Program-made: the position numbers and the translations under genes
In this document: one piece after another, positions 1 to 13,861 of the stretch
Layout: the number at the start of each line of letters is the position of its first letter
Numbering within the stretch: the stretch's first letter is position 1
Source: Oscillospiraceae bacterium
Lineage (GTDB): Bacteria > Bacillota > Clostridia > Oscillospirales > Ruminococcaceae
DNA length: 64,000 nt
Direction: 5' to 3'
Assembly (NCBI GenBank): GCA_004557855.1
Contig: SFFJ01000007.1
Coordinates: forward strand, 1,933-65,932
The notes under the pieces: model-generated
Told to the model about the DNA's origin: nothing
The model's database searches: none
The model's input: only the letters and a program-made list of their open reading frames with translations

Positions 1-20
1 CATTTGAAAGGGGCCTTTTG

Positions 21-611
21 ATGAAAAAGCTACTTCAGCAGTACGGAAAAATCATTCTCTTCATCGTGGTGATTATTCTGCTTGTTTTCGGATTTAAGGA
101 AGCAAGAAGGACCTTTTTGGTCAGTGCCGGTAACCCGGAAAACAGCTGTCGTGGATACCGCACCATCAAACAGGTGGAGAAAAAGTGCGGGTTGGAAGGG
201 CTCCTGAATCTCGATGGTGTCCAGGATTGGTATGATACTTATTATTTCCTTACTTATCCAAAAGGTGACCCCAAGAACCCGACTGCGCTGGAAGGTATTT
301 ACTGCATGGAGAAGAACGACAACGGTTTCGTTCGTTATTGGATCTATTTTCCGCAGCAAGGAGATACGCTGGAAAGTTATATGGAACGAAACAACATAAA
401 GCCGACACCGGAACGGGAGGAAATTAAAATTACAGCCGTATCCGGTGAGACTATTACGGCCTATCGTTTTATAAAGCCGGATCAAGAGCCAACGGGAAGT
501 ATCTACCTGTTTTTTGAGCATGACGGACTTTATTACAGTATGCGCGTAAGAGATTCGATCGATGAAGTAAAGGAATACTGCGGCCTTTTATTATCATCCG
601 CAAATAAATAG
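21..611 (+). CDS. hypothetical membrane-anchored protein (N-terminal TM helix), low-GC accessory gene
   Basis: ORF 18..611 in track. RBS-like AAAGGGG precedes the ATG at 21. Hydrophobic N-terminus IILFIVVIILLVF. Local GC is far below the rest of the window. No recognisable family. Confidence 0.45.
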   Translation: MKKLLQQYGKIILFIVVIILLVFGFKEARRTFLVSAGNPENSCRGYRTIKQVEKKCGLEGLLNLDGVQDWYDTYYFLTYPKGDPKNPTALEGIYCMEKNDNGFVRYWIYFPQQGDTLESYMERNNIKPTPEREEIKITAVSGETITAYRFIKPDQEPTGSIYLFFEHDGLYYSMRVRDSIDEVKEYCGLLLSSANK

Positions 612-693
612 TAAGTAAGGCGCCTAAAGTGACCTCGGGCTTTATCGCAGGCCCAAGGGTTTTCATGCTACGATCAGCACAAGAATGCACCCT

Positions 694-725
694 CCGATCA
701 ATCGACCGGAGGGTGCATTTGCGCC
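694..725 (+). terminator. intrinsic terminator hairpin after the 21..611 ORF
   Basis: tgcaccctccg-atcaatcga-ccggagggtgca is a perfect 11-bp stem, followed by TTT. Confidence 0.45.
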
Positions 726-847
726 TATTACAGCTCCATTTCATCCTTTCACTTTTTAACGAGTGTTGGTTGGCCGATTTGGTTTGATTGTTTAACAACT
801 GCATTGGGCTCATCCCCTTCACTTTATATAACCACTACATTTTTTAC

Positions 848-862
848 TGTTCAAGTTGAACA
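848..862. promoter_or_regulatory. 15-bp perfect palindrome TGTTCAAgTTGAACA (copy 1 of 4)
   Basis: Read directly: 7+1+7 inverted repeat. The same motif recurs at 936..950, 1807..1821 and, degenerate, at 1894..1908. Confidence 0.5.
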
Positions 863-935
863 AGAAAATTATGCCATCAAAATAACCATCTATTTAGACG
901 GCGTTTCCCCCGGTAAAGGGCTAACATTTTTTTAC

Positions 936-950
936 TGTTCAACTTGAACA
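936..950. promoter_or_regulatory. 15-bp palindrome TGTTCAAcTTGAACA (copy 2)
   Basis: Perfect inverted repeat 88 bp downstream of copy 1 and ~35 bp upstream of the -35 of the toxIN promoter. Confidence 0.5.
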
Positions 951-983
951 ACAGATGAAGTTTGTGAATTTTCTGCGACAGTA

Positions 984-1012
984 TTGACATAATCCCCGTT
1001 TGTGAGTACAAT
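984..1012 (+). promoter_or_regulatory. consensus sigma70/sigmaA promoter driving the repeat array and toxin gene
   Basis: TTGACA at 984-989, 17-nt spacer, TACAAT at 1007-1012. Confidence 0.6.
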
Positions 1013-1036
1013 AATAGTACAGGGCAGAGATGCCTC

Positions 1037-1145
1037 AAAAAGCGGTGTACCCTACCATGAGTGGGAGCTAAAAAAGCGGTGTACCCTACCACGAGTGGGA
1101 GCTAAAAAAGCGGTGTACCCTACCATGAGTGGGAGCTAAAAAAGC
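1037..1145 (+). ncRNA. tandem 34-nt direct repeats (3.3 copies), putative type III antitoxin RNA (ToxI-like)
   Basis: Unit AAAAAAGCGGTGTACCCTACCATGAGTGGGAGCT at 1037-1069, 1070-1103 (T-to-C variant) and 1104-1137, with a partial fourth copy at 1138-1145. No spacers, so not CRISPR. The array sits between a promoter and a terminator immediately upstream of a ToxN-family ORF. Confidence 0.6.
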
Positions 1146-1147
1146 AA

Positions 1148-1180
1148 AGGGACGGGCTTTTTCAAGCCCGCCCCTTTTTA
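1148..1180 (+). terminator. intrinsic terminator between the repeat array and the toxin gene
   Basis: agggacgggc-tttttcaa-gcccgcccc hairpin followed by TTTTTA. Its position between repeats and toxin ORF matches ToxIN loci. Confidence 0.5.
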
Positions 1181-1202
1181 TATCATTTAAGGAGACGCAA
1201 AA

Positions 1203-1799
1203 ATGAGTTTTTCTTTTTATTGTGTGGAGCCAAGTTATTGTGACTATTTGCGTGAATACGACCCGAAAGTCCCATATACAATGGACAAGAAGAGTACAAG
1301 GCCGTTTATTGGAATAGTATTGAACATCAATGGGTTTGATTATTTCGCTCCACTAACCTCGCCGAAGCCAAAGCACTTAAAAATGAAAAACCAAATTGAT
1401 TTTCTCAAAATAAACAATGGTATTTGGGGAGCTATCAATTTTAATAATATGATTCCTGTTCCACAGTGCTGCCTATCGAGAATATCTATGGAGATTCTAC
1501 CGACAGATACACAGGATGAGATCGCATATAAAAATCTCTTAATGAACCAACTATCTTGGTGCAACATGAAACAACATACAGATGCTATTTTAGAAAAAGC
1601 GTTAAGACTCTATACTGTCATTACCACAGGCAGAGCGCGCAAGGAACTTGTCGAAAGATGCTGCGACTTTCATAAAGCCGAACTTCAATATTGGAAATTC
1701 GGTATTGCATATGGTGAACCTATCTCTGAAGCACATCAGGAGGTTATTGAAATTGTCCACAGAGCTACCCCGGACCCCACCGAAGGGCGCCGCCGGTGA
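1203..1799 (+). CDS. toxN: ToxN/AbiQ-family type III toxin (endoribonuclease)
   Basis: 198 aa. RBS AAGGAGA lies 7 nt upstream. The N-terminal region ...YLREYDPKVP...RPFIGIVLNINGFDYFAPLTSPKPKH...MIPV matches, from memory, the conserved ToxN motifs (FIGIVLEIQGHKYLAPLTSPKKWH in Pectobacterium ToxN). The locus architecture is promoter, repeats, terminator, toxin. Confidence 0.8.
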   Translation: MSFSFYCVEPSYCDYLREYDPKVPYTMDKKSTRPFIGIVLNINGFDYFAPLTSPKPKHLKMKNQIDFLKINNGIWGAINFNNMIPVPQCCLSRISMEILPTDTQDEIAYKNLLMNQLSWCNMKQHTDAILEKALRLYTVITTGRARKELVERCCDFHKAELQYWKFGIAYGEPISEAHQEVIEIVHRATPDPTEGRRR

Positions 1800-1806
1800 C
1801 ACCCGG

Positions 1807-1821
1807 TGTTCAAGTTGAACA
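1807..1821. promoter_or_regulatory. 15-bp palindrome TGTTCAAgTTGAACA (copy 3)
   Basis: Perfect inverted repeat 8 bp after the toxN stop codon. Confidence 0.5.
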
Positions 1822-1847
1822 AGAAAAGACTGGTATAAATAATAAGC

Positions 1848-1891
1848 GCCTTCCGGTAGTGGCATCGCATCCGGAAGGCTTCTCTCTTTCC
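1848..1891 (+). terminator. intrinsic terminator downstream of the toxin gene
   Basis: gccttccgg-(14-nt loop)-ccggaaggc is a perfect 9-bp stem, followed by the T-rich run ttctctctttcc. Confidence 0.55.
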
Positions 1892-1893
1892 AT

Positions 1894-1908
1894 TATTCAA
1901 CTTAAACA
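1894..1908. promoter_or_regulatory. degenerate palindrome TaTTCAAcTTaAACA (copy 4)
   Basis: Two mismatches to the consensus. It has the same spacing relative to copy 3 as copy 2 has to copy 1. Confidence 0.4.
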
Positions 1909-1919
1909 AGAAAATACCA

Positions 1920-1948
1920 TTGACAACCAATAAATTGTGAGCTACAAT
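1920..1948 (+). promoter_or_regulatory. second consensus promoter (TTGACA-17-TACAAT), orphan duplicate of the toxIN promoter module
   Basis: TTGACA at 1920-1925, 17-nt spacer, TACAAT at 1943-1948. The -10 context tgtgagctacaataatag closely matches the first promoter's tgtgagtacaataatag. No credible ORF or repeat array follows. Confidence 0.45.
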
Positions 1949-2554
1949 AATAGCATAAAAGAAAATACACCCTGCGGGGTGGGGAAAGCCTGCCAGCCTT
2001 CCGCCACCCATCTTTGTGATCGAGATAGGATCACGCAGACTTTATACACGAGAGTGCCGTATCTTCGTGCCTATCATAGCACGATGGAATACCAAAAGTC
2101 AAGCGTATCGTTTCCACAGAGAACGGGGGCTTGGCTTTTCTTTTTGCTCCATGTGTCAGAACCTTGAAAAAACCATGACCGCGGGCCATGTACCGGATAG
2201 CCCGCTGCAACCGGAACCCATTTGCACATGATGGCTCCGGAAGCCCGTTAGTAGAGCACAGAACGCTGACGGTGGTATTTTGGCATAGTCGAAGCAGAAA
2301 AAGATACCTTTGTTGCCACAAGGAGTTTGCCATGACCCTATCAGCAATAGGAGAGCAGGCCGGCAGCAGAAACGGGGATGAAAGACAGATCAGGGAAAAG
2401 GCGTGTGTTGCGCCGGCGTCCGGATCCTCTGGCCAAACTATTCTGCACCCTGCGACACTAAAAAATATTTTTTTACCGCTTTTACGACTTCTTTAGTTAT
2501 GCACCATTAGCGGGAGATCACAAATTTCTTTGCGATTTCCCGCTATGGTACATA

Positions 2555-2644
2555 TGGCGGAGATGGAGGGATTTGAACCCTCGCGGCACTTTCGCACCCT
2601 ACTCCCTTAGCAGGGGAGCCCCTTCACCACTTGGGTACATCTCC
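2555..2644 (-). tRNA. tRNA-Ser (anticodon GCT)
   Basis: The reverse complement reads GGAGATGTACCC...CTCCC-CTGCTAA-GGGAG...GGTTCAAATCCCTCCATCTCCGCCA. It has a long variable arm, an encoded CCA and anticodon GCT. Confidence 0.85.
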
Positions 2645-11809: not shown

Positions 11810-13861
11810 GTGAAGTCATTGTCACCCAAAAAGAGAAACTGGATCGCCCCGCTGGTGCTCATTGCACTGTTCTTCTACATGGCGGTACGGCTGTTCAGCA
11901 TGAACAGCGCCCAGCCCAAGGTGGAATACCGCACCATCGTCGATTATTTCCGCAACCGGCAGGTCACGGAATACGAGCTGGATTTCGGCACCGGCGAGCT
12001 GACCATGAAGCTCAATGATGAAAAGAAGTCCACCGTCACCTATACTGTCCCCAATTTGAGCCTGTTCCTGCAGGATACCCACGAGCTGGTGGAGCAGTAT
12101 AATGCCGAGCATCCCGATGCCCCCATCAAGCAGTACTACGATGCCGCCGAGCCCATCCCGTGGTGGGTGGATATGCTGCCGCTGCTGTTTACCGTGCTGT
12201 TGATGGGCGCGTTCTGGTATTTCCTCATGAAGCGCTCCGGCGGGGGCAGCAACCCCATGGCCTTCGCCAAGCTCAAGCCCAAGCAGCAGGACCCCCATAA
12301 CCGTGTTACCTTTGCGGATGTGGCGGGCGCCGATGAGGAAAAGGAGGAGCTGGAGGAGATCGTGCAGTTCCTCAAGGACCCCGGTAAATTCAATGCGCTG
12401 GGCGCCCGGATTCCCAAGGGTGTTCTGCTCATGGGCCCTCCCGGAACCGGTAAAACACTGCTGGCCAAGGCCGTTGCGGGGGAAGCGGGCGTACCCTTCT
12501 TCTCCATCTCCGGCTCCGACTTCGTCGAAATGTTTGTCGGTGTGGGCGCCTCCCGTGTCCGTGACCTGTTCGAGCAGGCCAAAAAGAGCGCACCCAGCAT
12601 CGTGTTCATCGATGAGATCGATGCCGTAGGTCGTCACCGCGGCTCCGGTCTGGGCGGCGGCCACGATGAGCGTGAGCAGACCCTTAACCAGCTGCTGGTG
12701 GAAATGGACGGCTTTGCTCCCAATCTCGGCGTTATCGTCATGGCGGCCACCAACCGCAAGGATATCCTTGACCCGGCGCTGCTGCGCCCCGGCCGCTTTG
12801 ATCGTCATATCACCGTCAATTATCCCGATGTCAAGGGCCGCGAGGCCATTCTGCGGGTGCATACCCGCAATAAGCCCATCGGTCCAGATGTCGATCTTGC
12901 CGTGATCGCCCGCTTTACCGGCGGCTTTACCGGCGCCGATCTCGAAAACCTCACCAATGAGGCAGCGCTGCTGGCAGCGCGCAAGAACCGCAAGGCCATC
13001 ACCATGGAGGACATTCAGGAAGCGACCCTCAAGGTCGCCGTCGGCCCCGAAAAGCGCAGCCATGTCATCACCGAAAAGGAACGTCGCCTTACCGCCTACC
13101 ACGAGTCCGGCCATGCCATCGTCACCTACTACTGCCCGGACCAGGATAAGGTCCATCAGGTTTCCATCGTTCCCCGCGGCTGGGCGGGTGGCTTCACCCT
13201 TGCCCTCCCGGAAAAGGACGTCAGCTACCAGACCAAGAAGTGGATGGAGGAGGAGATCGCCGTGCTGCTGGGCGGCCGTGTTGCCGAACAGCTGGTGCTG
13301 GAGGATATCTCCACCGGTGCCTCCAATGACATTGAACGTGCCACCAAGATTGCCCGTGCCATGGTCTGCCGCTTTGGCTTCAGCGAAAAGCTCGGCCCCA
13401 TGATCTACGGCTCCGACCAGGAGGAGGTATTCCTCGGCCGCGATCTGGGCCATGGCCGGGATTACTCCGAGGAAGTCGCCGCACAGATCGATGAGGAGGC
13501 GCGCCGCTTTATCGATGAGGGCTACAATTTTGCCGTCAACCTGCTGCAGGAGCACATGGATCAGCTCCATGCACTGGCCGAATTCCTTATGAAGTACGAG
13601 AAGATCGACGGCGACCTGTTCGCCGAGGTCATGAGCGGAGTGACCAGCTTCGGCGAGGCCGCCGAGCGTGCCGAAAAGGAGCTGCAAACCGCCCGCGAAA
13701 AGGCCGAGTACGCCCGGCTGCAGCAGGAGGCCCAAAAGAAGGCCGCCGAGGAGAAAAAGGCCCAGCAGGGCTTCTCGGTGGAGCCGTTGGACATCCGCAC
13801 CCCAGAGGACCTGCCCCCCGCTGACGACAGCAAGGACGACGACGGCCCCGCAGACCTGTAA
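11810..13861 (+). CDS. ftsH: ATP-dependent zinc metalloprotease FtsH
   Basis: Two N-terminal TM helices. AAA+ Walker [24 protein letters not shown] and the zinc-binding HESGHAIV motif. GTG start after RBS ACAGGAG. Confidence 0.9.

Follow-up and report, generated by a model that had tools for sequence, protein, structure and literature searches.

The antitoxin RNA of the Bacillus thuringiensis ToxIN system is built of 34-nt repeats. In the kil-kor regulon of plasmid RK2 the KorB protein controls both transfer genes and genes that are toxic to the host, as well as partition, and to our knowledge this plasmid family is the only one in which a ParB-family global silencer has been well worked out. 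KorB is a CTPase clamp of the ParB family, and thus a relative of partition proteins, that silences plasmid genes from operators lying either 4-10 bp or 45 to >1000 bp 5' of the target promoters (PMC11790492). The omega protein of plasmid pSM19035 binds the centromere and also represses the omega-epsilon-zeta toxin-antitoxin (TA) operon at its promoter; it coordinates copy number, partition and post-segregational killing (PMC4627068). The DNA considered here is a stretch of 64,000 nt from an Oscillospiraceae bacterium (contig SFFJ01000007.1; hereafter the window), whose left end is the right end of an integrative conjugative element (ICE) and carries a toxIN unit bracketed by copies of a 15-bp palindrome, TGTTCAAsTTGAACA. 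The palindrome is a feature of the element and not of toxIN. Judged from its sequence and distribution, it is probably the parS- or KorB-operator-like site of a ParB-family CTPase encoded by the element, set into the linkers of an array of exchangeable toxin and phage-defence units. Although a system of this kind is not new, the arrangement found here seems to be undescribed, and the literature searched mentions neither of the two forms of the palindrome dealt with below.

A pattern search of the window returned three perfect 7-1-7 palindromes (TGTTCAANTTGAACA) and a fourth copy with two mismatches (TATTCAACTTAAACA; Table 1), where 0.05 matches per window are expected by chance and none of 100 shuffles reaches five. 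A repeat finder groups the four into one family with start-to-start distances of 88, 871 and 87 bp. A fifth match with two mismatches (TGTTCAGCATGAACA, 11892-11906) is chromosomal and conserved in related strains, and is probably a chance match inside a gene. The first-pass annotation of this DNA had reported three perfect copies and a degenerate one, forming two pairs about 87 bp apart of which the second directly follows the toxN stop codon, and all of this was recovered: the pairs measure 88 and 87 bp, and palindrome 3 begins 7 nt past the TGA at 1797-1799. It had also drawn a consensus promoter about 25 bp after each pair. Both promoters, P1 and P2, are there and read TTGACA-17-TACAAT (11/12 matches), but the distance needs correcting, as the -35 element starts 33 nt 3' of palindrome 2 in P1 and 11 nt 3' of palindrome 4 in P2. 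The two share a 19-nt block around the -10 element, TTGTGAGNTACAATAATAG, in which they differ solely at N; what the first-pass annotation saw as a duplicated promoter module is better read as the usual linker between units together with a diverged copy at the array end. The naming of the cassette was sound as well, for the open reading frame (ORF) matches Pfam ToxN_toxin (5e-49) and PADLOC AbiQ (6.6e-35), and with a ToxN-family protein, three tandem toxI repeats and a hairpin terminator all present this is a genuine type III TA locus.

Beyond the array, perfect copies of the palindrome lie ~250 and ~38 nt 5' of the start of nikA, which encodes a NikA-like/MobC ribbon-helix-helix (RHH) protein, and others lie near further genes. 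A diverged relative of the element, which occupies the same insertion site and has an ArdC protein 70-72% identical, contains the identical 15-mer 7-9 times per 21.7-kb locus within wholly different flanks. These copies are all confined to the stretch from ArdC to the right end; the ~12 kb of conjugation and type IV secretion system (T4SS) genes have none. The layout is also the same, with the ToxN stop codon, a site, a terminator hairpin, a second site ~89 bp further on and a promoter. The central base varies among strains (G, C, A/T; in palindrome 3 it is G in the window and A/T in the related loci L013-L015), the half-sites are invariant, and degenerate palindrome 4 is identical across all window-type loci. 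Conserved copies that are dispersed, lie in unrelated flanks and have a free centre are the hallmark of double-stranded DNA recognised by a symmetric dimer. The notion that the palindrome belongs to toxIN loci in general was discarded, since 18 distant viral toxIN loci contain neither the 15-mer nor any other recurrent flanking palindrome. Scans of viral contigs with extended palindromes gave 0 matches and 1 unrelated match, and in the metagenome scan about 18 of 40 matches were single copies on AT-rich environmental contigs with unrelated flanks, which were treated as chance.

Three candidate DNA-binding proteins can be recognised in both element types, namely a ParB_N protein, the NikA-like protein and a 325-aa protein whose match to HTH_36 is weak. 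The ParB-like protein scores 40.1 bits against Pfam ParB_N (cut-off 26.3), its LIGGERR motif, the GERR box of the N-terminal CTP-binding domain, is invariant in the alignment, and a sequence search of the PDB gives Noc and Spo0J as its nearest solved relatives. Directly 5' of its gene lies that of the ParA partner, a 253-aa AAA_31/CbiA/MipZ-like protein (2.6e-41). The AlphaFold model (pLDDT 73 overall, 87-94 over residues 170-240) matches ParB-parS, CTP-bound ParB, Noc and KorB chains over 220-240 columns, and complexes of DNA-binding domains with their operators (1r71, 6y93, 6s6h) with TM 0.57-0.69; in this model a predicted ParB-type helix-turn-helix (HTH) domain follows the N-terminal domain.

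The palindrome is seen to vary together with this protein. In both ICE types, in which the recognition region of ParB reads NMSESQVQRL, 58 sites have the form TGTTCAA.TTGAACA and 0 the form TGTCCAA.TTGGACA. In plasmid-like elements whose ParB is 44-46% identical and reads GIS(P/A)TQVQRY the counts are 0 and 9, with 2 more of the latter form in L104. The variant site (TGTCCAAGTTGGACA; shuffle expectation in L101 of 0.0) keeps the 7-1-7 design with one symmetric base change per half-site, and the residues of the recognition helix are NMSESQVQRLEY in the ICE ParB against GISPTQVQRYSS in the 44-46% homologue. A ParB that is 72% identical and has the ICE-type helix is again accompanied by the TGTTCAA form; L104 and L105-L107 extend the comparison beyond the counts of 58 and 9. 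Of the variant sites, some lie 120-136 nt 5' of parA, others 3 nt past the final gene of the par operon, and others again next to RelB, HicB or Fic genes. Sites thus adjoin the par operon in the plasmid-like L101, L102 and L104, whereas in the ICEs the nearest is ~4.5 kb downstream of parB. This placement of variant sites around parAB points to ParB rather than to NikA. Between the two ICE types the ParB-like protein is 76% identical, its N-terminal and HTH half being nearly invariant, and the NikA-like protein is 64% identical. The co-variation is the strongest argument for ParB as the probable binder.

In the Fic unit and at L095:17159 the second linker site falls partly on a -35 element (TTGAAC-17-TATAAT). 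It lies 11-12 nt 5' of TTGACA in the terminal module and in diverged linkers, and 33 nt 5' of it in the standard linker. The first site lies ~88 bp further up, just past the preceding stop codon, with a terminator hairpin between the two sites. Since this geometry resembles that of KorB operators and promoters, we infer that the cassette promoters and the mobilisation operon are silenced. It is proposed that ParB dimers would load at the palindromes and then occupy or slide onto adjacent promoters, so that toxin cassettes and the mobilisation operon would be kept repressed and tied to the state of the element; the same palindromes may act as the centromere of the excised element. A further possibility, that the palindrome is itself the -35 element of a sigma-70 or extracytoplasmic function (ECF) promoter, was rejected as it fits only the two TTGAAC-17-TATAAT contexts and leaves the perfect dyad symmetry unexplained.

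Several points weigh against assigning the site to the ParB-like protein. No Pfam or NCBIfam model recognises its DNA-binding domain, the protein falls below the NCBIfam cut-offs for ParB/Noc, and at pLDDT 73 its structural model is of moderate confidence only. The ICEs have no site near parAB, unlike most par systems. The co-variation is confounded by the common descent of whole elements, so that another conserved DNA-binding protein, such as the NikA-like RHH protein or the 325-aa protein with the weak HTH_36 match, could be the binder. The case for repression is one of site position alone, the 88-bp spacing of the sites is not a whole number of helical turns, and no sigma-70 promoter is predicted adjacent to the nikA-proximal sites.

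The bracketed toxIN unit proved to be one member of a tandem array. Homology among loci ends exactly at 847/848, the left edge of palindrome 1, and at least two unrelated left flanks are found there. The first-pass annotation had proposed comparing strains for the presence or absence of toxIN precisely between the palindromes, and L011 is such a strain: one of these left flanks is there joined to a single CCGGTGTTCAAGTTGAACAAGAAAA followed by the sequence normally found 3' of toxN, and the unit between palindromes 1 and 3 (959 bp, 848-1806) is missing. The indel is bounded by a 21-25-bp direct repeat. A metagenome scan for this repeat yielded contigs with 2-4 copies at many spacings, all of them tandem units in one common orientation throughout. 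A unit consists of a palindrome with AGAAAATTATGCCATC, a small hairpin, a second palindrome, P1, cargo and a conserved 3' end. The small hairpin shows compensating changes across units (CCGTCT/AGACGG vs CCATC/GATGG). The array always ends in a diverged module as at window 1807-1948, within which the strong hairpin between palindromes 3 and 4 is likely the terminator for the array. Among 57 loci with the terminal module, complete arrays hold 0 units (1 locus), 1 unit (42), 2 units (1) or 3 units (3), a sampling biased toward toxIN, and units of at least 15 lengths occur across arrays. In the genome of the window toxIN is the sole unit; L116 has the window's own left-flank gene, yet three units.

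The cargo comprises ToxIN, three CptIN-family type III toxins (1e-41 to 3e-54), a VapD-family protein with a 101-aa partner, a PBECR4 nuclease (1e-44), two Fic/Doc proteins, and a PD-lambda-5_A-like protein with a D12 methylase. The last pair is found in a 3873-bp unit (L085 6402-10274; also L065, L077, L086 and L108) that encodes a 513-aa PD-lambda-5_A-like protein, a D12 adenine methylase and a Fic/Doc protein and has the first linker palindrome only and no standard promoter; a shorter, 1179-bp version in L116 consists of the Fic/Doc part alone. Units of 505-506 bp (L061 4982-5487, L068, L084) contain no ORF but have a complete linker, a CptI-like leader and the 3' tail sequence; they appear to be remnants that lost the toxin and kept the antitoxin RNA region.

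Recombination between the repeats, which share the 21-25-bp core and in most units a linker of ~290 bp, would add, delete and reshuffle units, and would explain why toxIN is present or absent exactly between the palindromes. Palindromes that mix first-site and second-site flanks, at L109:2513 and in the class-A first site, seem to show crossovers inside the 15-mer. The first-pass annotation had read the repeats either as operators of a dimeric regulator or as the terminal repeats of a small mobile cassette. The former agrees with the occurrence of the 15-mer in contexts without a cassette, with half-sites kept while the centre varies, with sites that overlap the -35 element or lie 0-33 nt 5' of it, and with the change of the site together with the ParB-family protein. 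The latter agrees with the absence of the toxIN unit from L011, which came out as predicted, and with the other cargo that other contigs have between the same repeats. Both readings are thus supported, the second with the refinements that the repeats are not specific to toxIN and that no dedicated cassette recombinase is evident.

This last point bears on a further explanation, in which a dedicated site-specific recombinase that inserts and excises circular cassettes, as in integrons or dif modules, uses the palindrome as its core, any regulation being secondary. It would account for the exact indel between direct repeats of 21-25 bp, a break in homology exactly at the palindrome edge, differing cargo between identical repeats and the hybrid palindromes. 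However, no recombinase gene was called next to the array in any of the 57 loci, the sole integrase seen (L010) being ~9 kb away; a palindromic core with a free centre has no polarity, yet all units are co-oriented; and the ~290-bp linker shared between units suffices for homologous recombination. For these three reasons ordinary or short-homology recombination is favoured over a dedicated site-specific system as the means of unit gain and loss. The site also occurs where there is no module boundary, namely in the ArdC-nikA region and, in its variant form, flanking parAB; the integron-like core motifs are in reversed order and the units carry their own promoters. A dedicated recombinase is thus quite improbable. 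It was also considered whether palindromes mark module breakpoints everywhere, and this was dismissed, as the breaks in the variable ArdC-nikA region do not coincide with them.

In another explanation the palindromes would be relaxosome or origin-of-transfer (oriT) type sites for the NikA-like/MobC RHH protein, possibly together with the relaxase, and the array copies would be secondary, coupling cassette expression to transfer or permitting relaxase-mediated recombination between repeats. Relaxases are known to catalyse recombination of this kind between oriT repeats in R388, R1162 and R64. Two to three perfect copies lie within 250 nt 5' of nikA in every element type, among further inverted repeats typical of oriT, and a NikA-like protein is present in both ICE types. 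Yet in the plasmid-like relatives the variant palindrome brackets parAB and adjoins TA genes with nikA not in view, the array sites lack the extended arms of the nikA-distal site, no nick-site motif was found, and NikA (64%) is less conserved than the N-terminal and HTH half of ParB while the site is unchanged, all of which makes this explanation unlikely. Less probable still, and very much so, is that the palindromes act as RNA or single-stranded DNA hairpins, in processing, stabilisation, termination or on the transferred strand, and not as duplex sites. Several copies do have complementary, non-identical extensions (CTGT/ACAG, CAGG/CCTG, GCAGG/CCTGC), one extended copy is a terminator-like hairpin with a T-run and sites often stand just past stop codons, but the array sites have no extended stem and the 15-mer alone would give 5 bp with a 5-nt loop. 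Moreover, the sequence of loop and half-sites is strictly conserved, though a structure could accommodate substitutions; the symmetric switch from T to C and A to G follows the protein lineage; and the central base is free, also as regards pairing of the two linker sites with each other. A long hairpin built from these two sites (26-nt arms, 85% complementary) was rejected on the same ground, the central bases not being constrained to pair.

Individual copies and their surroundings differ in detail. The region 5' of nikA in L001 holds two more inverted repeats (2613-2645 and 2731-2750); GGGGTGATGTTCAAGGAACATTACCCC there has TGTTC/GAACA half-sites at a shorter spacing and GAATTTGTGATCACAAATTC is a separate perfect palindrome, and these are possibly oriT or operator elements. 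In L095 the copy at 12994-13018 is flanked by complementary arms that lengthen its stem, and a T-run comes next (GCAGG-TGTTCAAGTTGAACA-CCTGC TTTTTT), so that this copy could also work as an intrinsic terminator.

Almost all units close their last ORF with one shared TGA, which lies within the conserved GGTGAYRCCCGG, 7 nt ahead of the palindrome that follows. Eight unrelated toxins, namely ToxN, three CptIN-family toxins, VapD, two Fic proteins and PBECR4, have in common a C-terminal tail of ~25-30 aa, ...AQIIAEAKQEAADRLRSITPDPTEGRRR (...AEAKQEAADRLRSITPDPTEGRRR*), encoded at window 1722-1799, in L085, L086, L116, L108 and L109 and at L095 18270-18384. The ToxN of the window has a diverged form, SEAHQEVIEIVHRATPDPTEGRRR, and that of the diverged element retains the helical half (QIIAEAEQEAAEL). 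Over the 12 shared codons of this half there are 5 synonymous and 2 conservative nonsynonymous changes, as counted after re-registering the printed sequences by eye. The tail is thus translated and subject to selection. Extensions of a similar kind occur in other long ToxN homologues, and against Pfam the tail peptides gave sub-threshold matches only and no curated family. A doubtful but conceivable extension of these observations is that the array end is a new kind of cassette platform, in which two sites would wire each unit to the ParB-type silencer and each toxin would be fused to the common tail as an address tag. Speculatively, the helix AQIIAEAKQEAADRL with the basic end GRRR could serve, for example, as a recognition signal for type IV secretion, so that toxins would be exported along with the DNA; VbhT is a TA toxin exported by a conjugation machine (PMC5675462). 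As an equally speculative alternative, a single neutralising or regulatory partner common to the toxins could use the tail as its handle. In either case the shared tail could reveal common targeting or control of toxins on conjugative elements.

The element differs from its surroundings in composition, with a GC content of 0.36-0.51 over 1-2554 and of 0.6-0.7 beyond, and the low-GC segment borders two tRNA-Ser genes. In the element-free chromosomes L110-L112 and L117 the alignment to the window begins at 2555, and therefore 1-2554 is the end of the conjugative element, and P2 with the 600 nt beyond it belongs to the element. A chromosomal origin of P2 and the following 600 nt, as the 79% identity block had suggested, is ruled out by the same chromosomes. 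On the opposite side of the junction the element-free chromosomes have a Na+/alanine symporter gene. Contigs that encode exactly this ToxN have it at the right end of a mobile element whose other products include a NikA-like protein, a relaxase, ArdC, peptidases and adhesins and which always adjoins SpoIID/GdpP/DnaB, and leftward in related loci follow PrgI-like protein, VirB4/TraG-like ATPase, coupling protein, SSB, ParA-like ATPase, ParB_N protein and topoisomerase (TopA). With genes for a T4SS, a type IV coupling protein and a relaxase, and with precise empty sites, the element is an ICE; the integrase and left end were not seen for the variant in the window. In the short element variant of L010, a tRNA-like fragment at about 640-720 (CCCCGGCA...GGTTCAATTCC...TGCCGGGG; acceptor-stem/T-arm-like) stands beside a tyrosine integrase gene at the left of this variant and is possibly an old attachment site. 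One of the related contigs comes from an Oscillospiraceae metagenome-assembled genome and the rest from metagenome assemblies, at least some labelled human gut. A scan of reference genomes with the relaxase found one truncated locus, which is the toxIN-less allele.

Downstream of P2 there is no credible ORF, those present being without a family match. A small RNA predicted on the opposite strand converges on P2; its consensus fold has -44.7 kcal/mol with 4 compensatory pairs, and it is conserved in the diverged element. P2 and the following sequence are conserved between the element types (79%), and the 19-nt identity with P1 is confined to window-type elements. P2 might yield an antisense partner of the small RNA or might read across the joint after excision.

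Across strains the number of toxI repeats is 3 in 26 loci, 2 in 6 and 1 in 11. The toxI repeats and their promoter are also found 5' of cargo other than ToxN, that is of the 101-aa protein plus VapD or of PBECR4. In plasmid and phage collections, matches to the window were limited to short stretches coding for toxN, and an Rfam search of 600-2900 gave the two tRNAs alone above threshold and no family for the palindrome pairs or the P2 region. For annotation, the toxIN locus of the window is not to be treated as a free-standing TA system.

Table 1. Features of the element end in the window, and the ParB-like gene of a related locus (positions in the window unless a locus is named)
Feature	Position	Strand	Remarks
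Right end of integrated conjugative element, low GC	1-2554		chromosome junction 2554/2555
196-aa gene, left ('class A') array flank	21-611	+	ORF call
Palindrome 1	848-862		TGTTCAAGTTGAACA then AGAAAA; linker site 1; left boundary of toxIN unit
Small linker hairpin	885-902		between palindromes 1 and 2; terminator-like on minus strand
Palindrome 2	936-950		linker site 2; 88 bp past palindrome 1; 33 nt 5' of -35
Promoter P1	984-1012	+	unit promoter, TTGACA-17-TACAAT; common to most array units
toxI antitoxin RNA repeats	1037-1138	+	3 x 34 nt
Hairpin terminator between toxI and toxN	1146-1177	+	inverted repeat and terminator prediction
toxN, 198 aa	1203-1799	+	last ~25 codons (about 1722-1796) are the shared C-terminal tail
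Conserved unit end GGTGACACCCGG	1795-1806	+	holds shared TGA, 7 nt ahead of next palindrome
Palindrome 3	1807-1821		terminal module site 1; right boundary of toxIN unit
Strong hairpin CCTTCCGG...CCGGAAGG with T-rich tail	1849-1878	+	read from sequence; conserved in L011
Palindrome 4	1894-1908		degenerate, one change per half-site; 11 nt 5' of P2 -35
Promoter P2	1920-1948	+	TTGACA-17-TACAAT; points outward to element end, 600 nt off
Predicted small RNA, ~105 nt (about 1958-2066)	1958-2102	-	promoter 2102-2073, terminator 1981-1968; converges on P2
tRNA-Ser(GCT), integration target	2555-2644	-	element adjoins tRNA 3' end
ParB-like protein, 317 aa	L091 6807-7760		neighbour of ParA-like ATPase

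In its layout of promoter, tandem antitoxin repeats, terminator and ToxN, the window unit resembles the ToxIN systems of Pectobacterium and Bacillus thuringiensis. It differs from other ToxIN loci in its flanking palindromes, which the 18 other toxIN loci lack, and in the C-terminal extension of ~25-30 aa that its ToxN shares with unrelated toxins. The array as a whole is reminiscent of integrons (attC) and of the Acinetobacter pdif modules, which likewise have tandem, co-oriented TA or defence units, recurring imperfect inverted repeats and precise presence or absence of units. In contrast to these, the window array has neither an integron integrase nor an Xer-type site, its repeat is a symmetric 7-1-7 palindrome that also occurs outside the array, and a 3' coding tail forms part of the repeat. 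The attC order R''(RYYYAAC)...R'(GTTRRRY) was not found in the array, GTTGAAC and GTTCAAC lying inside the palindromes in reversed order, and the units are not promoterless, each having its own TTGACA-17-TACAAT or TATAAT promoter.

Canonical parS, TGTTNCACGTGAAACA, has the outer TGTT...AACA that is also present in the element's palindrome. ParB/Spo0J with parS and Noc with its binding site (NBS) are the nearest solved relatives in sequence and fold and have palindromes of similar length, and the ICE protein, like Noc, would have many dispersed sites; its site differs in being 15 and not 16 bp long, in having another centre and in lying in promoters and linkers rather than around an origin. Omega is similar as a Firmicutes centromere-binding protein that also controls a TA operon, and differs as an RHH protein on arrays of 7-bp heptads from a ParB-fold CTPase on a 15-bp palindrome (PMC4627068).

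The closest parallel is KorB with its operator OB on the IncP plasmid RK2. There the gene of a ParB-family CTPase neighbours that of a ParA-like ATPase on a conjugative plasmid, and the protein acts on a short palindromic operator with a variable centre that recurs at many promoters, either close to the -35 element or farther upstream by tens to hundreds of bp (PMC11790492). The model of the ICE ParB-like protein also matches the KorB structures 8qa8, 8qa9 and 1r71, a similarity at the level of fold with 15-18% identity. The window element differs from RK2 in being integrated, in having a Gram-positive host, another site (15 bp, 7-1-7) and two sites per linker, and in that no KorA-like partner was identified. 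With its defined sites, candidate protein, variant pair of site and protein and alleles of 0-3 units, the array is a natural system in which these parallels can be tested. If the proposed role of ParB is correct, an element of Gram-positive gut commensals with two ParB-type sites at each array joint would extend the logic of KorB, and would show how mobile elements silence several lethal genes and exchange them as units.

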